Shown here piece after piece: positions 1 through 15,660 of a DNA stretch of 19,970 bases (position 1 is the first letter of the stretch; every line of letters begins with the position of its first letter). This DNA comes from Monopterus albus (lineage: Eukaryota), in contig NW_018128417.1 of NCBI RefSeq assembly GCF_001952655.1, forward strand, positions 11,996-31,965, written 5' to 3'. Both the position numbers and the translations under genes were made by a program. The notes below the pieces were generated by a model. That model saw nothing but the letters and a program-made list of their open reading frames with translations, was not told the origin of the DNA and searched no databases.

Positions 1-175
1 ATATATATATTTGGGTAGCCTCTAGAACATTCTTCCCTGCCTGGTTTGTTGGACTTTGTTTGGCAGCTTTGACACTGACATACTGTAGCTCTCCATCGCG
101 CCTAAGAATGCCAGCTGTTAGGTCAGCTCTGCAGCGCACACGGTCAATCAGCACGTGATCAAACACCTGTTTCCT

Positions 176-228
176 GTACGTAGATTGTTTATATTGTAAA
201 TATAATAATAAACGTGAATCCACTGTGT
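176..228. repeat. 53-bp direct repeat, copy 1 (gtacgtagattgtttatattgtaaatataataataaacgtgaatccactgtgt)
   Basis: Seen directly. Near-identical 53-mer recurs at 646-698 with 2 mismatches; the two copies lie 470 bp apart. Confidence 0.85.
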
Positions 229-645
229 ACTCGTATGCAACTTTATTAGCAGCTTCCTCGTAACATTGCGCCAACAACATAACATGAGTATAACATCAAA
301 GTCTCTAGTAACATCCTCTCTGCCCCCTAAATAAATTATAAAAAAAATTGTCACAATTCCGAGGTCGGGCTTTATAGCCTGTGAGGGTTTGGATGTCCCT
401 CCAGAGACTCTGTGCATCTCTAGTGTTGCTGAAGTGTACAGATATTTTCTTGTTGTATTGACATTTTGCCTCCCTGATTCCATGGGACAGGTTGGCTCTT
501 GCTGTTGCTAGGCCTGCGGTGTCACCGGCCCTAACGACTGCATCCAAAGCCCTCAAGAGTCTATGAACCTCACCTGTCATCCATGGCTTCTGGTTAGCAT
601 GAAAATAATATTTTTGTGGGTGACATCATCAATGCATACGTAGGG
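229..645 (-). mobile_element. Non-LTR retrotransposon (L2/CR1-clade-like) ORF2 N-terminal-region fragment
   Basis: Minus ORF 305..580 encodes ...TARANLSHGIREAKCQYNKKISVHFSNTRDAQSLWRDIQTLTGYKARP. From memory this matches the conserved ..AYRxARxxLxRxIRxAKxxYxxKIExxF..DPRSMWQGIxAITDYK segment upstream of the RT domain in fish LINE ORF2. No RT or endonuclease domain is present, so it is a fragment. Confidence 0.45.
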
Positions 646-698
646 GTACGTAGATTGTTTATATTGTTAGTATAATAATAAACGTGAATCCACTGTGT
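646..698. repeat. 53-bp direct repeat, copy 2
   Basis: Seen directly; pairs with 176-228. Confidence 0.85.
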
Positions 699-727
699 TG
701 AAATTTTTAACTCTCCATAACGCTAAA

Positions 728-1411
728 TCAATGGGAGCCCTGAACTTGTTTCTCTGCAACGAGATGGTCCCATCTGGGGGTAATAGGAGACAATGACACC
801 CGAAGTGTGTTGCTTATGTTCAGTCTACTCCGTTGTTTTGTTTTGGTTGCTGTCACTGCAGAAAAACCTGCTTCACACAGATAGGATGTCGGAAATGGCA
901 ACAGGGTTTTCAGTGCTGTGGTGGCGATCTCAGGGTATTCTGTCATGACTTTAATCCAGAACACCGGCAGAGTTGTTGTCTCGAACATACTTTTAAGGCC
1001 GCCGTCATTTGCGATCTCCAGCAGTTGATCTTCTTCTTGCACAGACCTGCTGGATTCACCTGGTTTGTTGACAAATGGGTTGCGGATCCCTTCCTTGGCA
1101 GTTCGTGGGTCCTTTGTGGTTGGGAAGTAGCGCTCGAACTCTTTTAAAGGCAAAGACAGGTGATCGTGCACCAGCTGGGAGAATGAAGACTCAGGCTCAG
1201 TGTCACCCCAAATCCCCGCTAATGTTTGAAACATGTCCAAAATGCCTCTGTTGACGCGCCGTCCCCACAAATCCAGTTTGGCTTTAAATGCAGCTACTTT
1301 ATCTGCCAACTTGAAGACAGTTGTCATTTTCCCCTGAAGTGACAGATTGAGTTCATTGAGCAGGCTGAATATGTTGCACAAGTAATCCAGTTTTGGCGCT
1401 GAAGTGACCAA
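728..1411 (-). pseudogene. hAT (Charlie/ZBED5-like) transposase, C-terminal hATC dimerisation-domain portion only (227 uninterrupted codons)
   Basis: Translation KEFERYFP...NPFVNKPGESS...LLEIANDGGLKSMFETTTLPVFWIKVMTEYPEIATTALKTLLPFPTSYLCEAGFSAVTATKTKQRSRLNISNTLRVSLSPITPRWDHLVAEK is the characteristic C-terminal region of hAT-Charlie transposases and their domesticated ZBED5/FAM200/GTF2IRD2-like relatives. The N-terminal BED finger and catalytic core are absent; upstream of codon 1 there is only about 150 bp before the TIR. Confidence 0.7.
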
Positions 1412-1553
1412 GATGTAACCGAGATAATGCGGTCATTTTTCAAAATAAAAGATCGTTCAGATTCAGATAATAAATAAAACGGAAATACTTAATGATTTCT
1501 TGTGCGGCCCGGTACCAATTGATCCACGGACCGGTACCGGTCTGCGGCCCGGG

Positions 1554-1568
1554 GGTTGGGGACCACTG
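1554..1568 (-). repeat. hAT-Charlie terminal inverted repeat (CAGTGGTCCCCAACC on minus strand)
   Basis: Seen in sequence. Starts with CAG as hAT TIRs do. Putative 8-bp target-site sequence ttctagtg at 1569-1576 cannot be verified without the other end. Confidence 0.55.
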
Positions 1569-2628
1569 TTCTAGTGAACACAAGCTTCACCTCAAACATT
1601 TATTACAAGCAGGCACATCTGTAAAATCCCCAACATACATCTAAAGATGCAACCCCCTGCTGCGCAACAGGAAGAAATCTTTGACTTTTCCTCTAACATA
1701 TGGGAGGGAACTCAGTGTGACCGAAACACAGATTGTTGAGGCCCGAGTCTGCAGGTGGGACAAGAGGAAGCAGCTAGCATGGATATGCTCACTATTCACA
1801 CACACACAAATTACTTTGTCATTGCACTGACCGAAAATTATGAACACAAAAATGTAGAAGTAACACAATGGTATGCGAGCTTCAATTTCACACGTTTCTA
1901 GCCTCTATGGCTTTTCATAAATTCTAGCAGCCCTGAAGTGTATTAAGAAATGAACACATTGTATTGGACTTGTTTGAGCTGTACACGTTTAAATAAATCA
2001 ATCCTGCAAAACTGGTTGTATAGGATAAAAAAGAAGAAATATTAAGACACTCAAACATTATTTAAAGATTTTAATACTGTTCACGACCAGACACACAAAC
2101 AGTATCAGCAACAACCATAACAAGGAAAAAGAGACACTTGATAAAGCTAAATGCATAATAGTGCAGATCTGTTATATGTGATTAACTTCTGTAATTTCTC
2201 TTGGCCAAACTTGATCACCAAAGTAAGAGATCATAAAGCACCCTGTCAGCTGCTGATCATAGAAATGTAAAGCTGATATTTAAAAAATAAATTTCAGGAA
2301 GTGGTTCTTCTCTTTAGATCTACAAAACCAGTGTCAGACCAAACAAATACACCCCCCCATTAAAAACTAAAACAAGCGGTAAAACGGCCTCCTTATCTTA
2401 AAACTGTAATTTGTTCAAATTCTTTAGTGTAAATCTTGCCAAGTGTAGCGGAGTTATAATTCCATTTGCCATAACCCAAATAATTTGTTGCAATGGCATT
2501 TTATTTTGTTACTCCCTCCAGAAGTGAGATGTGTGTGGTGGTAATAGATTGGGGTGCCCCTGCAAACTTGAGGGGGTGCAGCCCGTGCTGCTTCCTTACT
2601 TATAATAAGGAAGCGTGGTTCAATTGGC

Positions 2629-2790
2629 GCCAGTCTGCCATACACTCTCATGGAGGTAAGTTGCGTTCGCTGCTGCTATACTAGCATAGCATGACAATTG
2701 GTACCTAAGTCTAAAACTGTTTTTGTTCCCTTTTAGTTAATTTGAATGCAACGGAGCTAAAGCTGTGCTGTTTTATGTTCTCTGTACCAG
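2629..2790 (+). repeat. Exon-like duplicated unit, copy A (27 bp + 81-bp GTAAGT..TTTTAG intron-like segment + 54 bp)
   Basis: 2629-2655 and 2737-2790 recur contiguously at 2823-2903. The intervening 2656-2736 starts GTAAGT and ends with a polypyrimidine run plus TTTTAG. Confidence 0.7.
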
Positions 2791-2822
2791 GTATTGTGCA
2801 TTTTAATTTATTTTATACACAG

Positions 2823-2903
2823 GCCAGTCTGCCATACACTCTCACGGAGTTAATTTGAATGCAATGGAGCTTAGGCTGTGCTGTTTTATGTTCTCTGTAC
2901 CAG
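2823..2903 (+). repeat. Exon-like duplicated unit, copy B (no intervening segment), followed by AATAAA at 2905-2910
   Basis: 81 bp co-linear with the two halves of copy A at ~90% identity. Separated from copy A by a 32-bp GT..AG spacer (2791-2822). Confidence 0.7.
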
Positions 2904-3402
2904 AAATAAAGACATTTGTAGCTGAAAGATTGTCTCCAGCCGGGTTAATCACAACGCAGAGTACCTCGACACGGATGTGACGAAATCATTCCGCTACACA
3001 AGCACGTGTAATACCCACAGTATTTAAGGTATTTGCTTTTCCATTAGATATTTCAAAAAGTTTTTGTGCAGCCAATTCTAGAACAAACTCTCACAAAAAC
3101 TAAAATGAAGTGAAAAACACATGCTAGTTTGTCTTCTAGCTAAATCTTACTCGACAGGTATTACAGTACGCAGATATTGTTGCTTCAGGACCTGGGCTAA
3201 ATGGTAAAACATGTAAACTTAGTGACAAAGAGTGACTGTGGCTTCGACACGTGCTATCTAAATGACCACTTAGAAAAACTGCTTCACTCTATTTAATCCG
3301 TTTGTGTTTTCTGCTTTTTGAACTTACAGCCTACAATAAAGATGCTTAAAGGCAGCTGTATATCTAAACAAAAGCAATCAGGTTACTTAGGTATAACCAG
3401 TC

Positions 3403-3665
3403 ATGCAGCATCAGATTTCTCCAACTACTCCAACCTGGTTTTTTTGGTTCCTTCGGCTGCTCCCTGCCAGCATCAAATACATTAAGTATCTGATGCTGGA
3501 TGCCAATCCTGACAAGTTAAAAGCCACCAGTCAACCCAAGATGCATGTTTTTGGACTATGGAGTACCCGGAGAGGACCCATGCAGCAATGGTGATATATA
3601 CAAACTCCACTCAGAAAAGTCAGCCAGAAGGTTCAAACGTGGAACCTTCTTGCTGTTAAGTCTAG
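3403..3665 (-). mobile_element. tRNA-derived SINE fragment with Deu-type central domain, 5' head truncated
   Basis: Contains ..catgtttttggactatggagtacccggagaggacccatgcagcaatgg...caaactccactcagaaaag...ggaaccttcttgctgttaag. From memory this is colinear with the widespread teleost SINE core (..ggagtacccggagaaaacccacgcag..gagaacatgcaaactccacacagaaagg..gaacccaggaccttcttgctgtgagg..). The tRNA head would lie at the high-coordinate end and is missing. Confidence 0.5.
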
Positions 3666-3971
3666 TCCAGCGTGGACGTATCTAACATTTGTTCAGTGGA
3701 GACAGCCCTACAGTACATAGACTTCCAAAGGCTATGGTTTTAGTTTAACAGATATTGGATGGGGTTATTTTGAACCCGAGGATGGACTGAACCGGAAACT
3801 GTAGCCACTTATCAGTGGTCAAAAGACATGGCAACCACTATTGTAATCTGATGAGACAGACAAGGCAGATGTTTCCAGTAAGATCTGGAAACCTGTACTG
3901 AAACCTTTTCACAGTGAATGCTAATGCCCTGTGCCCAGTGGAAAACACCTGGCTATGTAAATCTTTGGTCA

Positions 3972-3977
3972 TTTATT
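3972..3977 (-). promoter_or_regulatory. Candidate polyadenylation signal (AATAAA on minus strand) for the VWA5A-like gene
   Basis: Plus tttatt at 3972-3977, about 270 nt downstream (minus sense) of the stop at 4245-4247. Confidence 0.35.
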
Positions 3978-4244
3978 TCACCTTAACTGTTTTTTTATGT
4001 CCCTATAAAACAAACATACAGCATGTCTTAAAAACAAGATGATTAAAAGCTCAGTTATTGTGTATGTAGCCTATCAGGAATCAGGTTACAGCAGAAAGCC
4101 AACTGTATTTTGCCATGTACGGGCATGGATTTGCACCGACAAAGTTCAAAGAACTTTAGACAAAGAAATGCTGCGTATCTATGTAAGAAAAGCTACAAGA
4201 TCATCTCAGGCTCGTCTCTCTCTCACACCATCTTGTCTTCATGC

Positions 4245-4452
4245 TCAGTGGACAAGTAGAGGGGCTGTGGTCAGCTGCAGGTTCAATCCCCTGAGAGGTG
4301 AGAAGGGAGGCAGGTCTTCGTAGCCCAACAGCTGACGGGTGGATGCCTCCCAGCTCCAACCAAACTCCAGCCGGCTGTAGGCACATGGGTACTGCCGGTC
4401 AGCCCAGCAAACCCAGTCCACCGCCCTCTTCACCTCCTCCCAGTGCTCAGAC
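4245..4452 (-). CDS. VWA5A-like gene, terminal coding exon (..SEHWEEVKRAVDWVCWADRQYPCAYSRLEFGWSWEASTRQLLGYEDLPPFSPLRGLNLQLTTAPLLVH*)
   Basis: Acceptor ctttctctaccag|GTCTGAG at 4453-4454. The frame continues from the previous exon (..CCT AG|G TCT..). The segment KCEWELLERKAVAWMRAH from my recollection of human VWA5A aligns with SEHWEEVKRAVDWVCWAD. Stop TGA at 4245-4247. Confidence 0.55.
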
Positions 4453-4599
4453 CTGGTAGAGAAAGTCAGACATTATCAAAGGAGGAAGCTGCTCTGAGAA
4501 CAGTTGGCCGGGTTTACAAAATCATCCAGAGCAAACAGATTAAATAAATTATGATACTTTAACAACCTGGCATTATTATTTATATGCATTTCTTTTATA

Positions 4600-5230
4600 A
4601 GGTGTGCTTTATGGGACATTGGAATTTATCACATTTACAAAAAGAACTGATACTTTGATCGATTCTTCTTACAGATCAGTTTCTCCTCTGATGCCACAAG
4701 TGTTCATGTTTGATTTCTCCACTGCTCTATGTTTGTACCTTATTTGGACTACTGTGTTGAGTGTTGGGGAAATACATACAAAGCGCATTATGCTCATTAT
4801 TTAAACTACAGAAAAGGGCCATTAGAATTGTTCATGGACTTGGTTATAGGGATCATACAAATTCATCATTTGCACATTCAGGATTTTTAAAATTTTTTGA
4901 CTTAGTAAAATACAAATCTGCTGTATTTATGTATAAAGTCAGATATAATTTGGTGGCAAGTGTTATTCGGGGTCTGGTGATCGAGAGGGTGGTTATGGAT
5001 TGAGGGGCCACTTAAATTTAAAAACTCAGGCCATACGTACAACTAGGAAAAGTTTTTGTATATCTGTGAGTGGTGTAAAATTATGGAATAGATTGGGTGA
5101 TGATTTAAAACAATGTACAAGTGTAAAACAATTTAAGAATAAATATAAAAAGGCCTGCATAGCTGGGTATTGTTTTAAGTTATTATCGGTGTATTTATGG
5201 GTGGGATATGAATAATTTATTGTTTATCAT
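4600..5230 (+). mobile_element. Non-LTR retrotransposon ORF2 C-terminal / 3' tail fragment (RTE/Rex3- or L2-like), frameshifted
   Basis: Three consecutive plus ORFs (..KLQKRAIRIVHGLGYRDHTNSSFAHSGFLKFFDLVKYKSAVFMYKVRYNLV.. / ..RGHLNLKTQAIRTTRKSFCISVSGVKLWNRLGDDLKQCTSVKQFKNKYKK..). The pattern ..TN..F..LKFxDLVK..K...GxKLWN.L....K is typical of the extreme C-terminus of fish LINE ORF2. Confidence 0.45.
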
Positions 5231-5496
5231 TTGTTTGCCAATTATGTAAATGTGATTTGTGGTTAGAAGGAATGTAGTAATTTGGTGGTTGCGGGAATTT
5301 AACCAGTGTAGTCGTTTAGTTAAATATTTGGGTTGTGTCAACCATAGTTTGGATCACTAGGGGTAGAACTAGATAAGTATTACTTCTTTCTACTCCCTTG
5401 CAAGCATGTAATGACTAATCATCATCAAGAGAAATTTCTATTTTTTTGGTTGTATATGGTAATTGGTTTGGTTGTTTTGTGTTACATGTTGATTTC

Positions 5497-5560
5497 TTTT
5501 TTTTTTTTTTCTCTGTTTCTCTGTTTTATTACATGCTTGGAATAAATAAATAAATAAATT
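5497..5560. repeat. Simple repeats: T14 homopolymer (5497-5510) and (AAAT)5 microsatellite (5541-5560)
   Basis: Seen directly. Confidence 0.9.
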
Positions 5561-5619
5561 TTGGATTGATCACGTCTTGTATTTTCTGTGACTTTTTTTG
5601 ATCTAATTTAGGTTGTAAC

Positions 5620-5700
5620 CAGTGGTGGAATGTAACTAAGTACATTTACTCAAGTACTTCTTTTTTGAGGTACTTGTACTTTGAGTATTTTCTTCTCATG
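5620..5700 (+). mobile_element. Tol2-like hAT terminal fragment (CAGTGGTGGAATGTAACTAAGTACATTTACTCAAGTAC...GAGGTACTTGTACTTTGAGTA)
   Basis: Starts CAG and carries repeated AAGTAC / TACTCAAGTA subterminal motifs like Tol2-type hAT ends. Another TTTACTCAAGTAAAG occurs at ~5895. I found no matching opposite TIR. Confidence 0.25.
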
Positions 5701-6068
5701 CCAATAAATATACAGCTAATACTTTTTATTAAACTACATTTAAATAAGAGATTGAGTTACTTTACAAATCAAGATTTTTTTGCAGACAAAACATGGCAAC
5801 TATTTTGATAAATACTGATGTAATTTTTCATGACAAAGTGCTATTGTCATATTTCCTGTATTTCATGGCTCCAGCTCCTCAGATATGAAAAAGCAAAGAG
5901 GAGTTTTACTCAAGTAAAGGATCTGAATACTTCATCCTCCACTTTTCAACACGTATTTTGGCTGCACATTGAACCTTTGAGACTAGACTAAGGATGTGTT
6001 TTTAAAAATACTTAGAAAGGCATTTATTTTACATTGCTTTACATTGTTGTGACTAGCTGAGGACTGAC

Positions 6069-6201
6069 CTAGGCTGAGAGGAGTCGTCCAGGCGGAAGAG
6101 GGTGTGCAGCAGTTTGCCTTCCTCCAGCCTCTCCACCCTCATCAGCTGCAGAACCAGGAGAGTCGCCAGTAACCTCAGGATATCCGCATGGGCCCTCACA
6201 C
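6069..6201 (-). CDS. VWA5A-like gene, penultimate coding exon (..VRAHADILRLLATLLVLQLMRVERLEEGKLLHTLFRLDDSSQP..)
   Basis: Acceptor tgtgttgtgcag|GT.. at 6202-6203. Donor CCTAG|gtcagt at 6067-6068. Open in one frame only, and phase-compatible with both neighbours. Confidence 0.55.
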
Positions 6202-6637
6202 CTGCACAACACACATGGTTTTAACACTGGTGGGAACCAAAGCTCCAGTCCCGGTTGAGATGTCTGTACTAGTTATTAACAACAGGCCACACTGACAAAA
6301 ACTGAACTGTTTGCTATGTCACAACTTCACAAGTACAGAAGATCCCAGTACAAACCGGCCACAGTAACATTTACTACATAGGAAAAGATGTTATTCATGT
6401 GCTTTTTACAATCTAGGCTGATTGTACCACTTCTTTACTGGCTGATGATGCTGTTAAAGCAGAACTGTGAGAACTAACCTGTTCACACAATGAAATTGGA
6501 AAATTGGCGCCAGCTTTCAGGTAATGGTAGTATTTCTAGTAATGATGGCTCTTCTAACCTTACTTTGAATCATGATTTTGCACTGAATATGCAACGTTTC
6601 ATTAGGTTTTTGTCGTACAGGTTCTGTGAGCTCTCAC

Positions 6638-6740
6638 CTAGAGAACGGATGCCCTTGTTTTGCAGGTACACGTTGGCAAAGAGATCTACGTCAACATTTA
6701 TGGATTCACCCAGCTCTGTGGTTAACTCCCAGTAGCCCTC
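6638..6740 (-). CDS. VWA5A-like gene, coding exon (EGYWELTTELGESINVDVDLFANVYLQNKGIRSL)
   Basis: Acceptor gtgtgttgcag|GAGGGC at 6741-6742. Donor TCTCTAG|gtgaga at 6636-6637. Aligns to the recalled human VWA5A segment NGSWDLNEDLAKILGMSLEEI. Confidence 0.55.
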
Positions 6741-7124
6741 CTGCAACACACATTACAGGTTTTCCCTTCATTCAAGCTTAAAACAGTTTTTCATGAATAT
6801 ACTGTCAATAACAATGTAGATTGCAACAAATATGTCCCACATGATCATGCATCTCTGCGCCAGGCCATCTGAAAATGAACACTAAACCAACACAATGAGT
6901 GACAGAAATAATATACTGTAATCCACTTAGTTTGAATAAAACAAGTCCTCTTAATTTCACAGTTTCAGCCTATTAGACTAAACAGGTATGTGTCTCAAAC
7001 ACATTCATGGCAGTAAAAGAAGAGACACAGCTAATAAAATTCTTTGGGGCAGCAACAATGACAACATTACTTTCATACAACTATACATGTGCTGTAAATG
7101 AAGCTAGGCCATTATTAATGTTAA

Positions 7125-7500
7125 TCAAATTAACTCCTCCACACTGACCATGGTTTGTTGGCACAACACTGGTTTTTCCAGCCTTTCTGAGTAGCTCCTC
7201 TTTGCTACTCTGATCTCCTTTGTCAGTGTGTTTCTAGCCTGCTTATACAGGGTCCTGTCCCCATTCTTGTAGGCCTCCTCTTTTGCGTGACAGAGCTGTT
7301 TGAGCTTCACTGTGAACCAAGGTTTAATGTATGTGCAGACAGTCTTAATGGAGGCACACACACACATGTCCTCACAGAAACTGATATAGTCAGTAAACTC
7401 ATCCAGGTCTGTATCTGCAGCCACAATAACACCCCAGTCTGTACAGTCAAAGCAGGCCTGTAGCAATGCTTGTCACCCAAACTGAGTCTGCTCACAGACA
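7125..7500 (-). mobile_element. Non-LTR retrotransposon ORF2 N-terminal-region fragment (family distinct from the 229-645 fragment)
   Basis: Minus ORF ..ACFDCTDWGVIVAADTDLDEFTDYISFCEDMC...IKPWFTVKLKQLCHAKEEAYKNGDRTLYKQARNTLTKEIRVAKRSYSERLE.. From memory this matches the ..CFDCTDW..F...DLDE.TD.V.SYI.FCED...P.K....N.KPW.T..I..L...K..AF..GD...YK.AR..L...I..AK..Y..KLE block of fish LINE ORF2. Confidence 0.5.
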
Positions 7501-7590
7501 CACGCTGTCTGGTTCACTCAATCACAACATTGTTAACAAAAGGTTTGAGTCTTCGAACAGAGTTGGTGGTAACAAAAATCAAAGCTGATA

Positions 7591-8808
7591 CAGTGGAACC
7601 TTGGATTGCGAGTACCCCGGTTTGCGAGTGTTTTGCAAGACGAGTGTAGTGGTTAAAAATAAACAAGGTTCCAGAGGTAATATGTAATAGAACAGTATGC
7701 ACTTCATATATAGATATTATTTGTAATAGTTATGTAAGGCTGAGCTAAGTGTTTACAGAAGCTTGATCTGTTTCTTGCGCAAGCAAGAATATCTTGGGCT
7801 GTGTCCCCATTGTTTAACCTATGGGTCAACATCCCGAGTGACTTCCTCCTTAGATGGGGAATGGATAGCTGCAGCCTTATGTGAACTGTTCGTGTGCTCT
7901 GTTCAGGTTTAGAAAAAGGAAATGTGCGCTAGGTCAATGCGACCTAGAAGTTCATGTACTAGACATTTTTAGACAATGCTCGGAAGAAGTTTTGTGTGGG
8001 TAGCTGGCATGAGACTGTGTCTCATGCTCAGGCCATGGAAGGCTGTATAAGTGCAAGCAGATAAAAGGCTAGGATAGCTGGGTTAGAGCAGAAGAATTGA
8101 GGATGACAATGCCACTGTGAAAAGTGTTCCGGGGACCCAGGCCTGGGTGGGGAAACAAACTCAGGACTATGAACTCTGACTGACGGTACCTCGTGACCAA
8201 CAACAACTGACTGGACTGACTGGCGCTTTGACAATCTTCTTATTTAATACTTTATCTATCACATTGCAGGAGGAGTGACTCTGGTCTCCGTTCTCTGTTC
8301 CCTATCAGATCTTCTGTTTCACTATTACTCTGTTCAGAATAATTGTAATATTAAATGGTCATTTAAATTGGGATGATTTGTCTGAATTAATTTAGTCGGC
8401 TTCACACTCTAGCCATGACACAAGCAAAAACATTTTGATTCGATATACGAGTGAGGTCTCGCAATATGAGTAGTACGTACACTTTGTCTGCCGAGCATCA
8501 CGTGACGCAAGTCATAACTGAGCCGATGGTTCTCGCGCTTCACTCGTATAGTCAATATCTATACTGCAACAATGGCCCCTCACGCCAGCCACGATTCTTT
8601 TCAAAGGTCAAGTGCAGGTTAATGTTTTATTTTTACTTTATACTGTATTTTTTATTACTGTAATCATTTTTATATGGATAAGTGGGTGTGGAACGAATCA
8701 TCTGAGTTTCCATTATTTCTTATGGGAAAATTCGCTTTGATATACGGTTGCTTTGAATTACGAGCACATTGCTGGAATGAATTATACTCGCAATCCAAGG
8801 TTCCACTG
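7591..8808. mobile_element. Non-autonomous Tc1/mariner-superfamily DNA transposon (1218 bp) with perfect 24-bp TIRs and flanking TA
   Basis: Left end 7591 CAGTGGAACCTTGGATTGCGAGTA. Right end 8785-8808 TACTCGCAATCCAAGGTTCCACTG is its exact reverse complement. TA at 7589-7590 and 8809-8810. No transposase-like ORF inside. Subterminal ..ttgcgagtg.. / ..cgcaatatgag.. repeats. Confidence 0.65.
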
Positions 8809-9507
8809 TATTTTACTTGCCAGCAGGACATGCAAACTGTTCATTTATTCACACACCTGCACCTGCACCTGAATGAAATGCATCCATGATCCATGTTTTT
8901 AATTTCATCTGTTCAGTAGAAATGCTCACGTAGACCCATTAAAAATGCAAAATCTCTTACTGAATGCTGCATCTGGAAGATCTTTGTCCATTTGTGCGTT
9001 AGTGTTTCCGGATCAGCTGGTGTCATCCTGAAACAGCACAGTCACAACAGGACACTTGTCAGTGTGACAGCTGATGTATAATAAAAACGCATATGCCCAG
9101 GGATGTAAAGAAAACCACACACTTCAGCTGACTTGCTCTTCCTTCCACATGCATAAATGCACATATACAGAGAACACACAAAAACACCCTTCAGTCCACC
9201 AGCTAGTTAACAGCTGATTTCCTCTGGTCAGCTAAAGCCTTGTCAGCATTTAAAATGAGTACTCTGGCAACACTAATTGTTTTAAAAAACTTTTAATCAG
9301 ATTTTCTAAATAGAAGCATATTTAAAAAATGTATTATTCTAGGACTCACTCCACATCCAGTGCGTCCAGCACACCTGAAGTCTGAGGACATATTAGGGAT
9401 AACCTCTTCCTCCTTAAAACAGATGGACGTGCATCTCCAACATGTTCAGGTTCCCTCTGGGCCAGTCCGAATCCAAAACAAGAACGTGGTGGTTGAATTT
9501 TCTCTAC

Positions 9508-10524
9508 AGAATGGCTTAACAATTGCGCTTTTTCTACAAGATTAGGCTCAGTGTGGTCTGATGTCCCCAGAAATTGCACACTAGATTCATAGGAAGCGAT
9601 ATAATCTGAGTCCTGGTCAAAAGCAAAATTGGATATTGCCCCTTCATATGAGAAGACTTTGATTCCAGTTGTATCAGCTGCCATTACTGGGGCTAAAGAT
9701 GCTTCCTTTGCAAGATGTATAGGCACAGCTGCTGTACACAATTCCACAGAGACAGCGGAACTCTTCTCTGTGTCCAGAAGGTCAGGAGCTAATGAAGACG
9801 TCATTAAAGCACCCGTGGCTAATTCTTGAGCAAAGAAAGAGGGATGACTGCCTGAGTACATGGTAATGTCAGGTGAGGAGAATTCACCATGACGTTGCCT
9901 GAAGGCTCTCCTGTGTCCTGCTGACCGCTTCAATCGAGGCTCCATGTCACGAATGTTGCCTAAGAGGGCAGGAGGAGGAGCTGGGCAAGGAGGAGGAGGA
10001 GGAGCAGAGCCAGGAGGAAGAGGAGCTTGGCACAGAAGACGAGAAGCACGTCTAGGAGGGGGAGGGGCAGAGCAGGGAAGGGGAGGAGCAGAGCAAGGAG
10101 GAGGAGGAGCTGGGCAAGGTAGGGATGGAATCAACATAGTTTTAAGATAAGGAGATGGTCCAGGAAGAGCAGGAGCTAGGCGAGGAAGAGCAATAGGTGT
10201 GCCAGAAAGAGGGGGTGCTGGACAAGGAGCAGAACCAGAGTGAGCAAGAGCATGGAACGTACGAAGAATGTGGGGAGCAGGAGATAAAGAGAGTGCAGCA
10301 TTGCCAGAAAGAGGGGGGCAAGAGGTATCAAGACCTTCCATGAGGTCTATATCAGATAAGGCAAGTTCATCTTCAACAAAACTAACACCCATCGCTTCAT
10401 TTGATTCTGTGCCTGATTCCAATTCATGCGTCCTTTTTCTGCTCCTTTCCAACATTAGGTAATCCGAAAATGAAGCACCGTCTATTGGTAATTCCTCAGC
10501 CAAATCAGGTAAGGAGTAGCAAGT
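9508..10524 (-). CDS. VWA5A-like gene, large coding exon (339 codons) encoding a proline-rich low-complexity linker (..PCPAPPPPCSAPPLPCSAPPPPRRASRLLCQAPLPPGSAPPPPPCPAPPP..) followed by ..DHTEPNLVEKAQLLSHS
   Basis: Part of the 402-codon minus ORF 9346..10554. Proposed acceptor ttttctttatcag|ACTTGC at 10525-10526 is phase 0 and matches the upstream exon. Proposed donor CATTCT|gtagag at 9506-9507 is chosen because it joins ..NLVEKAQLLSHS to EGYWELTTEL in frame, mirroring the recalled human ..NHLVQLIYHQNA|NGSWDLNEDL. Exon boundaries are inference. Confidence 0.45.
9960..10140. repeat. Degenerate purine-rich minisatellite (GGAGGAGCAGAGC(A/C)AGG-like units) forming the proline-rich coding tract on the minus strand
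   Basis: Seen directly: ggaggaggagctgggcaaggaggaggaggaggagcagagccaggagg...ggaggagcagagcaaggaggaggaggagctgggcaagg. Confidence 0.75.
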
Positions 10525-10786
10525 CTGATAAAGAAAAGAAATTGAGAAAGCCAAAAAAAAAGTCAGAACCTATCTTAAAACAACTGCAATACAAACTTTT
10601 TTCCAGTTTATGCAATTAAATGTTTCTAGATCAGCTCTCTCAAAGCAAACTTTTAGGATTCCTGATCTAGGTTTTAACAAGTCCTTTCAGAATACCAGCC
10701 TGCCCCTGCTTTCACATTAAATGTCATTTTCTGTGAATCTCATGCAAAAAGACTGGAGTTATTATTATCATCCATAACTTCATATA

Positions 10787-12326
10787 CAGTGGGGAAAACA
10801 AGTATTTGATACACCGCCGATTATTCAAGTTTTCCCACTTACAAAGAATGGACAGATCTGTAATTTTCATCATAGGTACACCTCAACTGTGAGAGACAGA
10901 ATCTACAAAAAAATTCCAGAAAATCACAGTTAGATTTTTAAATAATTTATTTCCATTTTGTTGCATGAAATAAGTATTTGATACAATAGAAAAATAGAAC
11001 TTAATATTTGGTACCGAGGTCAGATGTTTCCTGTAGTTCTTGACCAGGTTTGCACACACTACAGCAGGGATTTTGGCCCACTCCTCCATACAGGTCTTCT
11101 CCAGATCTTTCAGGTTTTGAGGCTGTCGCTGGGCTCCCTCCATAGATTTTCTATTGGGTTCAGGTATGGAGACCGGCAAGGCCACTCCAGGACCTTGAAA
11201 TGCTTCTTACGGAGCCACTCCTTAGTTGCCCTGGCTGTGTGTTTGGGGTCACTGTCATGCTGGAAGACCCAGCCACAACCCATCTTCAATGCTCTTACTG
11301 AGGGAAGGAGGTTGCCCAAAATCTCGCGATACATGGCCCAATCCATCCTCTCCTCAATACGGTGCAGTTGTCCTGTCCCCTTTGCAGAAAAGCACCCCCA
11401 AAGCATGATGTTTCCACTCCCATGCTTCACGGTTGGGATGGTGTTCTTGGGATTGTACTCATCCTTCTTCTTCCTCCAAACACGGTGAGTGGAGTTTATA
11501 CCAAAAAGTTCTATTTTGGTCTCATCTGACCACATGACCTTCTGCCATGCCTCCTCTGGATCATCCAAATGGTCTTTGGCAAACTTCAGACAGGCCTGGA
11601 CATGTGCTGGCTTGAGCAGAGGGACTTTGCGTGCGCTGCAGGATTTTAAGCCATGACGGTGTAGTGTGTTACTAATGGTAACTGTTGAGACTGCGGTCCC
11701 AGCTCTCTTCAGGTCATTGGCCAGGTCCTCCTGTGTAGTTCTAGGCTGATCCCTCACCTTTCTCAGCATCACTGATACTCCACGAGGTGAGATCTTGCAT
11801 GGAGCCCCAGTCCGAGGGAGATTGACAGTCATCTTGAATTTCTTCCATTTTCTCATAATTGCACCAACACTTGCTCACCAGGCTGTTTGCCTATTGTCCT
11901 GTAGCCCATCCCAGCCTTGTGCAGGTCTACAATTTTGTTCCTAGTGTTCTTAGACAGCTCTCTCTTGCTATAGTGGAGAAGTTGGAGTCTGATAGATTGA
12001 GTGTGTGGACAGGTGTCTTTTATACAGGTAACGAGTTCAAACAGGTGCAATTAATACAGGCAATGAGTGGAGGATAGGAGGGCTTCTTAAAGACAAACTA
12101 ACAGGTCTGTGAGAGCCAGAATTCTTGCTGGTTGGTAGGTGATCAAATACTTATTTCATGCAATAAAATGGAAATAAATTATTTAAAAATCTAACGGAAT
12201 TTTTTTGTAGTTTCTGTCTCTCACAGTTGAGGTGTACCTACGGTGAAAATTACAGATCTGTCCATTCTCTGTTAGTGTGAAAACTTGAAAAATTGGCAGT
12301 GTATCAAATACTTATTTGCCCCACTG
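10787..12326 (-). mobile_element. Tc1-like (Tc1/mariner, IR/DR-type) DNA transposon, full length (1540 bp) but inactivated
   Basis: Ends CAGTGGGGAAAACAAGTATTTGATACACC (10787-) and GGCAGTGTATCAAATACTTATTTGCCCCACTG (-12326) are inverted repeats. Inner copies of ..AAGTATTTGATACA.. lie at ~10970 and ~12135, giving an IR/DR structure. TA at 10785-10786 and 12327-12328. The DDE transposase lies inside. Confidence 0.9.
10883..12050 (-). pseudogene. Tc1-family DDE transposase, split across three frames (frameshifted; initiator Met lost)
   Basis: ORFs 11853..12050 (..[29 protein letters not shown]..), 11110..11856 (..[11 protein letters not shown]...[13 protein letters not shown]...[10 protein letters not shown]...[17 protein letters not shown]..) and 10883..11185 (..[31 protein letters not shown]..) are colinear with Sleeping Beauty/Tc1 transposase (helix-turn-helix, DD(34)E and C-terminal motifs). 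Confidence 0.9.
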
Positions 12327-12470
12327 TATCAACAGTAACTTACCAATGAGCAAATGAATGAGCACTGCTTTGCTTTATCAATATGAGTGTGATGTCGCAC
12401 AAGGATATGGGACTCATTAATTAACAATTAACATTTAGGACTCATTAACCTAATAAGTGTTACTTATTAT

Positions 12471-12488
12471 CCCCCCCCCCCCCCCCCC
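12471..12488. repeat. C18 homopolymer
   Basis: Seen directly, about 145 bp from the Tc1 element end. Confidence 0.95.
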
Positions 12489-12767
12489 ACTTTTCCTGCT
12501 TTAAAAAACAACAGCTCACTCTAAAGAATGCATTTGTCTTCCCCAGCAAGAAATTACAAACATGCCGTTGTGGTTTATGTATGAAGGGAATTGGTGAATA
12601 ATGTGGAGAGGCTGAGGCCTGCCCATCATAGTTCAACAAAGAGACAAAGAGATAAAAGCAGGACTAGCACATACCAACAGGTAAATTTGCTCTTTCCCCT
12701 CTCCCTGGTTATACTACACACTGTGTGATGTTACCTCCAAAAAAAACCAAAAGAAAAAAAAACATAC

Positions 12768-12911
12768 ATCACATAGTACATCTGACAGTTCTTTGTCCTC
12801 CTCTTCACTATGCTCAGGAGAAATCCAGCTGATGTATGTGAGGATGTCCACATCTTCCTCTGCAATCAACTTGGGGATGTCTGTGAAACCATCCTCTGTT
12901 TGTTCTGGGTC
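12768..12911 (-). CDS. VWA5A-like gene, coding exon (DPEQTEDGFTDIPKLIAEEDVDILTYISWISPEHSEEEDKELSDVLCD)
   Basis: Acceptor cttccatattttag|GACCCAG at 12912-12913. Donor GAT|gtatgt at 12766-12767; an alternative donor GAT|gtacta lies 9 nt upstream. Open in one frame, phase 0/0. Confidence 0.45.
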
Positions 12912-13006
12912 CTAAAATATGGAAGAGGAGTTTGGTTGGGAGCTACCAGAAGTGGATACAAATAAAAAGGTAGAAATGTTTAAAATCCAGTGACAACTGC
13001 ACAAAC

Positions 13007-13102
13007 CCTTTCCTCAATGGCCACAAAGCTGGTGAACTGAGACAGGATGGAGAACTCTCTGCTCAACCCAATGATGAAGGATTTCAGCTCCGCTTTCTTC
13101 CC
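13007..13102 (-). CDS. VWA5A-like gene, coding exon (GKKAELKSFIIGLSREFSILSQFTSFVAIEER)
   Basis: Acceptor ctctcttccag|GGGAAG at 13103-13104. Donor GGAAAGG|gtttgtgc at 13005-13006. Matches the recalled human VWA5A segment ..KKDALNLSLESGVISSFTAFIAINKE.. Confidence 0.6.
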
Positions 13103-13202
13103 CTGGAAGAGAGGGAGAGAAAATAAACCATGTGGAGCTCAGACTGGATTTAAACTGAGGTGTGTTGCTTTTGGCCTCACTCAATGACACACACAAACGC
13201 AC

Positions 13203-13319
13203 CTCATGTTCAGCTTCATCACTATCCAGGCTTCCGTCTTCATAATCCCTGATGAGGGCCCTTGCTGTGAGCTTGTGAAGAAACTGAACACATACATCAA
13301 TACACATTATAATCATCAC
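13203..13319 (-). CDS. VWA5A-like gene, coding exon (..IDVCVQFLHKLTARALIRDYEDGSLDSDEAEHE)
   Basis: Donor CATGAG|gtgcgt at 13201-13202. Matches recalled human ..PDVNLTIHRLAARSLLQTKDMG... The 5' boundary is uncertain: acceptor catgag|GTGATG at 13320-13321 gives phase 0. Confidence 0.5.
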
Positions 13320-13652: not shown

Positions 13653-13774
13653 AGCCATGAAATGGATTCACAAAAGCAGTAGTGCATAAATTATCATGGA
13701 GATTTATTCTGTGCAGCCTCCTTAGTCCAGGCTAACAGCCAGGCTCCATTAATCCTATTCCCTTATCTGTTCTG

Positions 13775-14730
13775 TTAGCAGTCACTCTGTGTCTTATCAT
13801 CTTTATGCAGATGATGTTCAAATTTATTGCTCTTTTAATGACTCTGAGTTCCATTTTTTAGCTACATTGTTAGAGTGCTTGTCATCCATCAAGAACTGGT
13901 TTAACAGTAACTATCCTCATATAAACTCTAATAAGACTGAAGTGCTGATTATTGCGCCTGATAATAAGATCCCGTCAATCAGACAACGCCTTGGTTCATT
14001 GGGCTCCTCTGTCCAGTCGAGCCTCAGAAACCTTGGTGTTGTGTTTGATCACACTATGTCTCTCGATTGTCATGTAAGACAGGTGGTAAAAAATTGTTTT
14101 TATCATCTGAGGAATATTTCTAAATTAAGGCAAATGTTATCAAAGGTTGACCTGGAGATGATTATCCATGCTTTTATCTCTGCACGTCTTGATTATTGTA
14201 ATTCCCTTCTTATTGGTTACAATAAGTCAACTGTAAATCGTCTTCAGATTGTGCAGAATGCTGCAGTTTTTATCACCTAAAGAATATTTCTAAACTAAGG
14301 CAAATGTTATCAAAGGTTGATTTGGAAATGATTATGCATGCTTTTATCTCTGCACGTGTTGATTACTGTAATTCCCTTCTTATCTGTTACAATAAGTCAA
14401 CTGTGAATTATCTTCAGATTGTGCAAAATGCTGCAGTGAGGCTTTTAACAGGAACCCCTAGAAGAGCTCATATTACGCCTGTCTTATTTTCACTTCACTG
14501 GTTACCAGTCAGGTTTAGAATTGATTTTAAAATTTTAGTACTAACATTTAGGGCACTTCATGGTCAGGCACCTCAGTATATTGCTGACCTATTGACCCCA
14601 TATTTTCCGAAGCGTGCTCTCCACTCCTCAAGTCAGGCCATTTTAGTGGTCCCCAAAACCCGTTTGAAAACTAGGGGGGGCCTGTCTTTTCAGGCTCTGG
14701 CTCCCACAGTTACTGTTATATAGAGCCTGT
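13775..14730 (+). mobile_element. L2-clade LINE, 5'-truncated (RT C-terminal half plus 3' region)
   Basis: Plus ORF starts ..SYHLYADDVQIY (RT YxDD box). It continues ..IKNWF..NYPHINSNKTEVLII...LGVVFD..MSLDCHVRQVVKNCFYHLRNISKLRQMLSKVDLEMIIHAFISARLDYCNSLL.G..KST...LQIVQNAA(V)RLLTG..R..HITPVLFSLHWLPVRFRIDFKILVLTFRALHGQAPQYIADLLTPY..RALHSS...LVVPKTRLKTRG, the classic fish L2 ORF2 C-terminus. Confidence 0.75.
14097..14437 (+). repeat. 170-bp tandem duplication inside the L2 RT-coding region (copy 1 14097-14266, copy 2 14267-14437)
   Basis: Seen directly. ..ttttatcatctgaggaatatttctaaattaaggcaaatgttatcaaaggttgacctggagatgatt..ctgcagt recurs immediately with about 93% identity. At the protein level RNISKLRQMLSKVDLEMIIHAFISAR.DYCNSLL.GYNKSTVN.LQIVQNAAV is encoded twice. 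Confidence 0.85.
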
Positions 14731-14934
14731 ATGAATCATTCCACAAAAATGGTTGAAGTGCTGTCACTTAGCCTATTTTTACAGACACCAAAATCCTTAA
14801 AGTTGACATAATCATAGTAATTTCATTCTAATGACAAAACACAGATTATTCATCTGATGTTCAATTTTAGCAAATTAATTAAATGTCTTGTCATTTTGAG
14901 CATAGACCTACCTTTCATAATTTTTTCATGAATT

Positions 14935-15660
14935 CAGTTTCTTTCAAAAAAGAAAAAATCCTGACACTTGCAGACAACACGATGGTCATTGGCCTCATTC
15001 AAGACGGTGACGAGTCGGCCTACAGACGGGAGGTTGAACAACTGGCCCTGTCGTGCGGTCGTAACAACCTGGAGCTGAACACACGGAAGACAGTGGAGAT
15101 GATAGTGGATTTTAGGAGGAGCTCCACCACTCTATCTCCACTCACTATACTCAGCAGCACTGTTTCAGTCATGGAGTCCTACAAGTTCCTGGGCTCCACA
15201 ATCTCTCGTGACTTGAAGTGGGCAACCAACATCAGCACCATCATTAAAAAGGCATCAGAGGATGTACTTCCTGCGTCAGATCAGGAAGTTCAACCTGCCC
15301 CAGGAACTTTTGATTAAGGTCTATAGAGGAACCATCGAGTCTGTTCGCTGCTCATCCATCACTGTCTGGTTTGTTCCAGGAACCAAATAGGACAGGAACA
15401 GATTTCAGCGAACAGTCAGGACTTTGGAGAAAATCATTGGTGCAACCCTGCCCTTCATAGAGGACCTGTACACCTCACCGGTCAAAAAGAGGGCAGAGGA
15501 GATTTCTGCGGACCACTTACATCCTGGACACAAAGTGTCTGAACACCTTCCCTGTGGACGGCGTTACAGGTAAGACAAGCAGACACAGAGACAATTTCTT
15601 CCCCAGGCTATTACACTCTTGAACAGCCAGTCTATGTTTCCCCTTTTAACTTGTATATAT
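14935..15660 (+). mobile_element. CR1/L2-clade LINE (Rex1/Babar- or jockey-like), 5'-truncated RT C-terminal fragment with frameshifts
   Basis: ORF 14883..15317 ..LADNTMVIGLIQDGDESAYRREVEQLALSCGRNNLELNTRKTVEMIVDFRR....LSPLTI.SSTV..MESYKFLGSTISRDLKW..NISTIIKKA.. continues out of frame as ..YFLRQIRKFNLPQELLIKVYRGTIESV...ITVWF....RNRFQRTVRTLEKIIGATLPFIEDLYTSPVKKRAEEI..D..HPGH.....LPCGRRYR....QTQRQFLPQAITLLNSQ. This is the familiar fish LINE RT tail (..FFPQAIRLLN). Confidence 0.65.

Follow-up and report, generated by a model that had tools for sequence, protein, structure and literature searches.

The largest exon of teleost PARP4: a probable hypervariable linker of the human exon 30 type, with an in-frame tandem repeat in Monopterus albus

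The DNA considered here (the window, 19,970 nucleotides in full) comes from Monopterus albus and covers positions 11,996 to 31,965 of contig NW_018128417.1 in the NCBI RefSeq assembly GCF_001952655.1. It is eukaryotic, fish-like and rich in transposon remains, and its minus strand carries a gene that is, on sequence comparison, the 3' half of PARP4 (vault PARP), stop codon included. When spliced, the downstream exons align to residues 1572-1716 of human PARP4 in the PDB sequence collection (E = 4.6e-28), where the entries matched by the C-terminal exons are 11jf_P (1724 amino acids, aa), 9bw6 and 9bw7. The upstream exons align to human residues 1005-1044, the end of the vWA domain, and 1122-1213 (E = 1e-35). 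The gene product thus has the ITIH-like VIT/vWA region, represented by the second alignment, and the C-terminal MVP-interaction domain (MVPID, human 1570-1724; Pfam PF26156), and the long linker between these two regions, most of it encoded by a single large exon with a tandem repeat, is the subject of this article.

A Pfam scan of the C-terminal exons returned no match, and the scanned library proved to lack PF26156 when proteins that carry this family in a precomputed table were put through it. The identity of the gene was therefore settled through the human PARP4 sequence in the PDB. A search with a composite of the adjoining conserved exons brought up fish fragments, part of them named poly(ADP-ribose) polymerase and part with PF26156 (PARP4_MVP-ID), and there are relatives annotated as PARP4 that carry the same family. 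Seven teleost products, including those of Lates calcarifer, the sea bass Dicentrarchus labrax and Zoarces viviparus, match the window's C-terminal domain at 76-84% identity. The D. labrax gene model immediately upstream contains BRCT, WGR-like_PARP4, PARP, VIT and VWA domains; the BRCT and catalytic region fall outside the window.

Eight exons with AG/GT boundaries join into a single open frame of 664 codons that runs up to the stop codon; all PARP4 coordinates below refer to the minus strand. Upstream of the large exon lie the '..FTSFVAIEER' exon of the post-VWA, ITIH-like region (13007..13102) and the 132-nucleotide (nt) 'DIPKLIAEEDVD' exon (12911-12780; DPEQTEDGFTDIPKLIAEEDVDILTYISWISPEHSEEEDKELSD), called the DIPKL exon below. 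The latter encodes DPEQTEDGFTDIPKLIAEEDVDILTYISW.., with ..FPDIPKVSELIAKEDVDFLPYMSW as its human equivalent, and aligns to human PARP4 up to residue 1213; it is conserved from fish to human, including in four of the sequences used for comparison (L001 from the grenadier Coryphaenoides rupestris, L002 from the closest relative available, L006, and L007 from D. labrax). Downstream of the large exon, a 67-nt exon (9027-8961; (E)MTPADPETLTHKWTKIFQMQHS, 'KWTKIFQMQHS') starts the MVP-interaction domain. It aligns to human PWTELLSLQTE from residue 1572, the first residues of the folded domain, and is part of the DNA that blastn aligns to L002; all 8 teleosts compared have its W, T, F, Q and S. Further exons, placed like the '..FTSFVAIEER' exon by human alignment and exon model, are the 'EGYWELTTELG..' exon of the MVP-interaction domain (6638..6740), the '(G)VRAHADILRLLATLLVLQL..' exon (6069..6201) and the last coding exon '..SEHWEEVKRAVDWVCWADRQYPC..LLVH' (4245..4452), with its TGA stop at 4247-4245.

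The large exon (10524..9350) corresponds in position to human exon 30. Its 1175 nt make up 391 codons plus 2 nt, and it is entered in phase 0 and left in phase 2; the 67-nt exon supplies the missing base, and its splice sites and phase fit. The open frame around it (10569-9349) has 407 codons and no stop, with 12-28 stops in each of the other five frames, and the longest open reading frame (ORF) in 1000 shuffles of the surrounding 1.7 kb had 198 codons. G+C content by codon position in this frame is 0.59, 0.54 and 0.32. The exon start at 10524, proposed in an earlier interpretation made from the letters of the window (the sequence-only reading), holds: a long polypyrimidine tract and CAG (10525..10560; ..tttttttttggctttctcaatttcttttctttatcAG) precede it, with the acceptor AG at 10526-10525, and L002 has an equivalent acceptor (..tctcatttcgcAG). 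At the other end the consensus donor GTGAGT (9344..9349; GA|GTGAGT) includes the in-frame TGA that closes the ORF.

The same reading had ended the exon at 9508, on a donor GTAGAG, and had treated the whole linker between ..FVAIEER and EGYWEL.. as one exon. Conservation, phase and a relative's transcript instead place the end at 9350, and the interval holds three exons. The TCT|GTAGAG donor at 9508 keeps the frame if joined to EGYWEL, but the invariant KWTKIFQMQHS would be lost, and the choice has no comparative support. The transcript in question is P0063, an uninterrupted ORF on an RNA-type contig of 7.2 kb, whose source is closely related to the L002 species; it reads ..SSFHPSSV|SMSAD..KWTKIFQMQHSEGYWEL, and its junction is exactly that predicted from the L002 genomic sequence with the equivalent donor. 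The transcript-type contigs P0059, P0060 and P0063/L006 all run from proline-rich big-exon sequence into ..WTKIFQMQHS-EGYWEL.., and the annotated teleost gene products P0058, P0061 and P0062 make the same connection. Entry and exit phases are identical in the four teleosts with a measured large exon, namely 1175 nt in the window, 878 in L002, 1466 in C. rupestris (L001) and 887 in D. labrax (L007); all four lengths are 2 modulo 3, and a GTGAGT or GTAAGT donor ends the ORF in each.

At the PARP4 locus of D. labrax (L007, CAJNNU010000006.1) there are two adjacent gene models, 1-9676 and 10001-13258, giving a 1340-aa product with BRCT, PARP, VIT and VWA and a 458-aa MVP-ID product that starts inside the large exon. 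Lates calcarifer (P0058, 'uncharacterized protein LOC108872816') and Zoarces viviparus (P0061, 'hypothetical protein VZT92_004879') are each represented by a C-terminal fragment product only. Gene predictors thus seem to break PARP4 at the hypervariable exon. The 7.2-kb PARP4 RNA contig L006 (Logan SRR11928263), otherwise spliced, keeps, between the DIPKL exon and the large exon, 77 nt (3776-3852) that begin with GT, end with AG and contain stop codons; if that stretch is an intron, the large exon there starts about 100 codons earlier than in L002. The annotated downstream product of C. rupestris L001 (3616-12309) combines PARP4_MVP-ID with VIT and VWA, which points to a merged gene model or else to another VIT/VWA gene immediately behind PARP4.

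The repeat inside the large exon is a coding minisatellite. Tandem Repeats Finder (TRF) places 7.0 copies of a unit with period 21 at 9970-10119 (69% matches, score 119, consensus AGGAGGAGGAGCAGGGCAAGG). With TRF and lag-21 identity taken together, the core spans 9964..10128, about 7.9 units of 21 nt (a heptapeptide) that encode 55 aa (aa 133-187 of the exon) with 47% proline. Starting at 10128, the successive 21-nt units encode PSLPCPA PPPPCSA PPLPCSA PPPPRRA SRLLCQA PLPPGSA PPPPPCP APPPAL. Nucleotide identity at a lag of 21 is 0.653, with more peaks at 42 and 63; codon-shuffled controls reached a mean best lag of 0.544 +/- 0.022, and none of 2000 attained 0.653. The units are head to tail, the period is a multiple of three, and the periodicity exceeds what composition gives. 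The degenerate plus-strand repeat and the minus-strand peptide quoted in the sequence-only reading (PCPAPPPPCSAPPLPCSAPPPPRRASRLLCQAPLPPGSAPPPPPCPAPPP) are therefore real, the peptide being exactly what the sequence encodes, and its placement of the repeat inside a coding exon is borne out by the 407-codon frame and by the relatives' RNA contigs that include the exon.

Older and more degenerate copies of the unit (ALPRLAP ALPGPSP ..SAPCPAPPLSG) lie upstream in the gene at 10142..10257, 63-68% identical, and include a second TRF array at 10150-10192 (period 21, 2 copies). A repeat search groups the whole as one family, D1, with 10 copies in register, 21 nt apart, over 9968-10257; the unit has no other occurrence within the window. 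The surrounding proline-rich segment, defined by composition, covers aa 69-189 (9958..10320), 121 aa with 33% proline, and SEG-like low-complexity segments lie at aa 110-123, 131-164 and 166-189. Low complexity of the translation, as expected earlier, is thus present within aa 110-189; the first 68 aa have 2.9% proline and the last 202 aa have 5.9% and ordinary complexity. An extent of about 340 aa for the proline-rich, low-complexity region overstates the 121 proline-rich and 55 array residues three- to six-fold.

Replication slippage or unequal exchange is the obvious source of the array. The array is old and interrupted, with only 69% matches, and hence probably fairly stable, which speaks against high instability today and against the length polymorphism anticipated in the sequence-only reading; it is the most decayed of the teleost arrays compared. 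No second sequence of this species was found in the searched collections. At window positions 10001-10500 the plus strand has a GC skew of +0.31 and an AT skew of +0.30, and the coding strand of the proline tract is nearly pure pyrimidine. Runs of this homopurine/homopyrimidine kind can adopt unusual DNA structures, which promote slippage. A G/A-rich plus-strand ORF at 9893-10147 (85 aa) was set aside as simply the antisense of the proline tract.

Outside its frame and boundaries the large exon is hypervariable. Composition-filtered BLASTP against the seven teleost products gave no match to the exon, and an exhaustive HMMER comparison with 1.84 billion representative proteins gave no true one, the lone hit being a bacterial proline-rich repeat protein aligned only through PPPPPP and hence spurious. 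When the whole exon was run in a word-indexed protein search, none of the 8000 candidates gathered, most of them probably by way of proline-rich words, proved to be a match. At the DNA level, sensitive BLASTN against L002 finds nothing in the exon, while the intron directly 3' of it aligns at 64% over 511 nt and the neighbouring exons are 85-89% identical. An eight-species alignment (A1) has 1 invariant column in the big exon and about 90 in the following 160 residues, after W405. An apparent resemblance to P0060 (FHALAHS..PAPP, PPPPR..SR.LC) was rejected, as it scored 76 against a mean of 69.5 +/- 10 for shuffles that preserve local composition.

What teleost exons share is organization and composition. 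The exons of D. labrax (L007/P0062), C. rupestris (L001) and the Logan contigs L002, L006 and L008 have the same splice phases, the same ORF-closing donor and a polyproline core; exons at the equivalent place in other teleosts encode 292-488 aa. L005, the European Nucleotide Archive contig with P0017, is a more distant, compact locus and was left out of the comparison. A polyproline core is present in all five complete or near-complete teleost exons, the window included, with 34-47% proline in the richest 55-aa window and proline runs of 4-14, compared with 20% in the richest 55-aa window of human exon 30. Proline-richness is, as far as these exons go, a teleost feature and not specific to this lineage.

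The repeats are another matter. Two of the compared teleosts have in-frame tandem repeats in the exon, but the units differ from that of the window (78 nt in one, 54 and 12 nt in the other, none in L002), the exons range from 878 to 1466 nt, and they cannot be aligned with the window. The D. labrax exon has a 78-nt unit in 2.7 copies (89% matches), and that of C. rupestris has units of 54 nt (6.3 copies) and 12 nt (37.6 copies) as well as CCA (12.7 copies), with 90-100% matches; L002 has no comparable array at the equivalent place, only a 23-nt CCTCCA run. Every repeat period in the large exon is a multiple of three, the pattern expected of recurrent slippage or unequal exchange where a linker must keep its frame and tolerates other change. 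Different units in different teleosts argue that the expansions were independent. Of the earlier proposal of a lineage-specific expansion by slippage, the specificity of the repeat structure therefore stands, and the proline-richness, common to five teleosts, does not. Within the large exon of C. rupestris, the 12-nt array (L001 3074-3524) is in frame as a putative (SQSV/SQPV)n, and the acidic tail of the DIPKL exon in the same contig (1885-2080) is apparently part-duplicated in tandem (..STPQDPQRPEQ..YMAWNAEEEDE, then ..STPQDPHFYMALNSEDED..).

The human gene has a linker of comparable length. Between the conserved anchors, human residues 1213 and 1572, lie residues 1214-1571, or 358 aa, and the fish interval is 13 + 391 + 12, or about 416 aa; a human interval of about 100 residues, from which an insertion in the fish had been deduced, is refuted. 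The human interval is formed by the largest exon of the gene, exon 30, a segment of about 360 aa being wholly within it (Daugherty et al. PLoS Genet 2014, PMC4038475). According to the same study, secondary-structure software predicts near-complete disorder for the exon 30 region, the region was included in all expressed sequence tags examined, and its sequence and length are highly variable among vertebrates. The ratio of nonsynonymous to synonymous substitution rates (dN/dS) for the largest exon was 1.75 between human and rhesus and 1.1-2.3 in five other vertebrate pairs, with localised positive selection in primates and bats (PMC4038475).

The fish exon at 10524-9350 corresponds to exon 30 in being the single largest exon, above 300 aa, between the ITIH-like region and the MVP-interaction domain. 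The two belong to the same gene and are of similar size (347-360 aa for human residues ~1223-1570/1582, 391 aa in the fish), and both lie between a ..DIPK..EDVDFLPYMSW motif and PWTELL/KWTKIF, the start of the MVP-interaction domain. Both are rich in proline, serine and alanine, with 14% proline in the fish exon and, in the published alignment, 11% proline and 15% serine in human exon 30; the length variability of the human exon type is found in the fish exon as well. Unlike the fish exon, human exon 30 has no proline run of three or more and no tandem repeat. It ends, in the published alignment, with ..HWQDA just before PWTELL.., whereas KWTKIFQMQHS is a separate 67-nt exon in the fish. Sequence search of human PARP4 with the fish exon gave no match, and Smith-Waterman comparisons of its non-repeat parts with the exons of L002, the grenadier and human stayed within shuffle expectation. 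No homology is claimed for the resemblance between FAFDQDSD in the window exon and FAFQSSDTESD in human exon 30 (z of -0.4 to 0.9 with whole-sequence shuffles).

Basic clusters occur near both ends of the window exon, RSRKR at aa 26-31 (~10449-10432) and RRKR at aa 371-374 (~9414-9403). Human exon 30 opens with a basic stretch (KRKHRKIPFSKRK), and the grenadier exon (RRKR) and P0059 (KRKKKR) are basic near the end. These clusters, which resemble nuclear localization signals, may be the only recurring short motifs in the linker.

Taken together, these results argue, with a probability that we put at roughly 85%, that the region is the largest exon of teleost PARP4, a hypervariable linker of the human exon 30 type with an in-frame repeat generated by slippage. 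In structural work on PARP4, long disordered regions are described as bridging the folded domains inside the vault lumen (PMC12280208), and the C-terminal domain is anchored on the MVP wall (PMC12280208, PMC10450202). The fish exon would likewise encode a long, fast-evolving, probably disordered linker between the catalytic and ITIH-like (VIT/vWA) body and the small helical domain at the C-terminus, which attaches to the vault shell from within. Such a linker would have few sequence constraints other than its frame, so that slippage during replication, or unequal exchange, could create in-frame tandem repeats in it time and again. In this species the unit, 21 nt long and coding for a PPPPCSA-like heptapeptide, would have multiplied to about 8 copies, beside a few older ones upstream, and would then have diverged, adding some 55-100 residues to a polyproline core that is general in teleost PARP4 linkers. 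Polyproline stretches are stiff and extended, and the most economical reading is that the exon encodes a spacer whose polyproline segments add stiff length. We infer slippage as the mechanism, disorder, and the role as spacer or tether. The exon has no Pfam or PDB match, and AlphaFold2, run on an 8-row alignment, predicts no secondary structure at aa 30-391 and nine helices in the C-terminal domain.

Several points weigh against this reading or soften it. Orthology with human exon 30 is positional only, with no detectable sequence similarity. Inclusion of the exon and its exact boundaries in this species are deduced from relatives and splice logic. The AlphaFold2 confidence is low throughout (mean pLDDT, the predicted local distance difference test score, 39.9) and is also low for the control domain, and the Uversky charge-hydropathy plot fails to separate the exon from the folded MVP-interaction domain. 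Finally, the retention of a polyproline core in five teleosts hints at some constraint beyond that on a neutral spacer.

Of the other explanations, the one that fares best sees in the exon a pathogen-facing surface that determines specificity and is under recurrent positive selection, an idea put forward for mammals and birds, so that gain and loss of repeats would be adaptive variation. The dN/dS values of 1.1-2.3 in six vertebrate pairs and the localised selection in primates and bats speak for it (PMC4038475). The fish exon is also less alignable than the neighbouring intron, which means more than neutral-rate drift, but divergence faster than that of an intron could also come from insertion, deletion and repeat turnover in low-complexity DNA. 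To our knowledge, no pathogen partner of the PARP4 exon is known in any species. This explanation is compatible with a hypervariable linker, though we consider it rather unlikely.

It is more doubtful that the polyproline core is a docking module, a predicted ligand of SH3, WW, EVH1 or profilin partners whose avidity would be tuned by the number of heptads; this too could be true of a linker of the exon 30 type. The core recurs in all five teleost exons, and the tract contains RLAPALP (class I SH3, [RK]xxPxxP), PPPPRR (class II SH3, PxxPx[RK]), PPLP (WW group II) and one run of five prolines. Each ligand motif occurs only once, though, and the patterns are very permissive; there is no PPxY or [FWYL]PPPP in the tract, the position and sequence of the core cannot be aligned between species, and no run of three or more prolines occurs in the human exon. 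Moreover, the linker probably lies within the vault lumen, which would limit access for cytoskeletal partners. Formin FH1 and other polyproline spacer or ligand regions likewise have runs of 4-5 prolines and short spacers, are probably disordered and are expected to form stiff polyproline II. In contrast to formins, the window exon comes with no FH2 or other actin-related domain and has a single run of five prolines, so that the likeness to FH1 is one of composition and not of family membership. A related idea, to which we give a similarly small chance, is that the teleost core, absent in mammals, is rebuilt by independent minisatellites and, if selected, tunes the tether or a surface that binds pathogens or partners.

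That the proline tract, or the whole ORF, stays outside the mature protein, as an intronic or pseudo-exon ORF or a spliced-out 'exitron', is very improbable. Its one apparent support is P0044, a 224-aa metaclust protein from another fish that lacks the big exon; in it, a stretch of 44 residues connects the FVAIEER and DIPKL exons with the final two exons of PARP4. For these 44 residues, the matches to the EGYWEL and FVAIEER exons, translated in antisense, are collinear but non-significant (E ~4-5), and P0044 also lacks the EGYWEL exon; it is therefore probably an assembly chimera and was not used as evidence of exon skipping. On the other side, a 407-codon open frame is far beyond chance, repeat periods are multiples of three in four species, the exon is joined to downstream exons in transcript contigs and gene models of other teleosts, and skipping 1175 nt alone would shift the frame. 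The weakest account, a lineage-specific proline-rich insertion of about 340 aa into a linker of about 100 residues (as in human), all in one 1017-nt exon, draws on the lineage specificity of the heptad array and on the lack of a detectable homologue by sequence for the large exon, but practically nothing is left of it given 358 human residues between the same anchors in one exon of ~360 aa, only ~121 proline-rich and ~55 repeat residues in the fish, an exon of 1175 nt flanked by two further linker exons, and the 292-488-aa exons of other teleosts.

The remaining features of the window are mostly remains of mobile elements. The 2.26-kb intron between the DIPKL exon and the large exon (12779-10525) contains a Tc1/mariner transposase frame, open over 254 codons and oriented like PARP4 (11113-11874, minus strand; HTH_Tnp_Tc3_2 E = 1.7e-22, DDE_3 E = 1.5e-9). 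Because the counterpart intron in L002 has only ~560 nt, much of the length of the window intron is explained by this insertion. A run of 18 C at 12471-12488 (plus strand) lies in the same intron, just downstream of the DIPKL exon. Reverse-transcriptase-like ORF fragments (13753-15314, plus strand; RVT_1 E = 1e-6 for 13753-14277) occupy the intron between the exons at ~16617 and 13283, and a 170-nt tandem duplication (14096-14437, 2 copies, 90% match) doubles part of that frame. Downstream of the PARP4 stop, two long minus-strand ORFs of 234 and 106 aa (731-1432 and 308-625) have no Pfam match; by eye they look transposon-derived, one like a hAT-type C-terminal region and one like reverse transcriptase ('CHPQKYYFHANQKPWMT..'). 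The 3' flank of PARP4 looks like an accumulation of mobile-element debris. A scan of the window against Rfam gave no match.

The large exon is thus no oddity of this fish; it corresponds to the largest exon of PARP4, whose hypervariability is well documented. The exon type is already known and published, and the useful additions here are the corrected exon model and the turnover of repeats among teleosts. For annotation, the value lies in the 1175-nt exon and its two small conserved neighbours, which mark the site where predictors often break PARP4. The length variation of the exon in teleosts, previously only noted, is visibly driven by recurrent in-frame repeat expansion around a polyproline core. 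Should selection and not mere tolerance lie behind this turnover, it might adjust how long or how stiff the tether is by which the enzyme is kept in the vault, or might vary a surface that binds pathogens or partners; were that true, it would provide a concrete and tractable handle on the role of the PARP4 linker.

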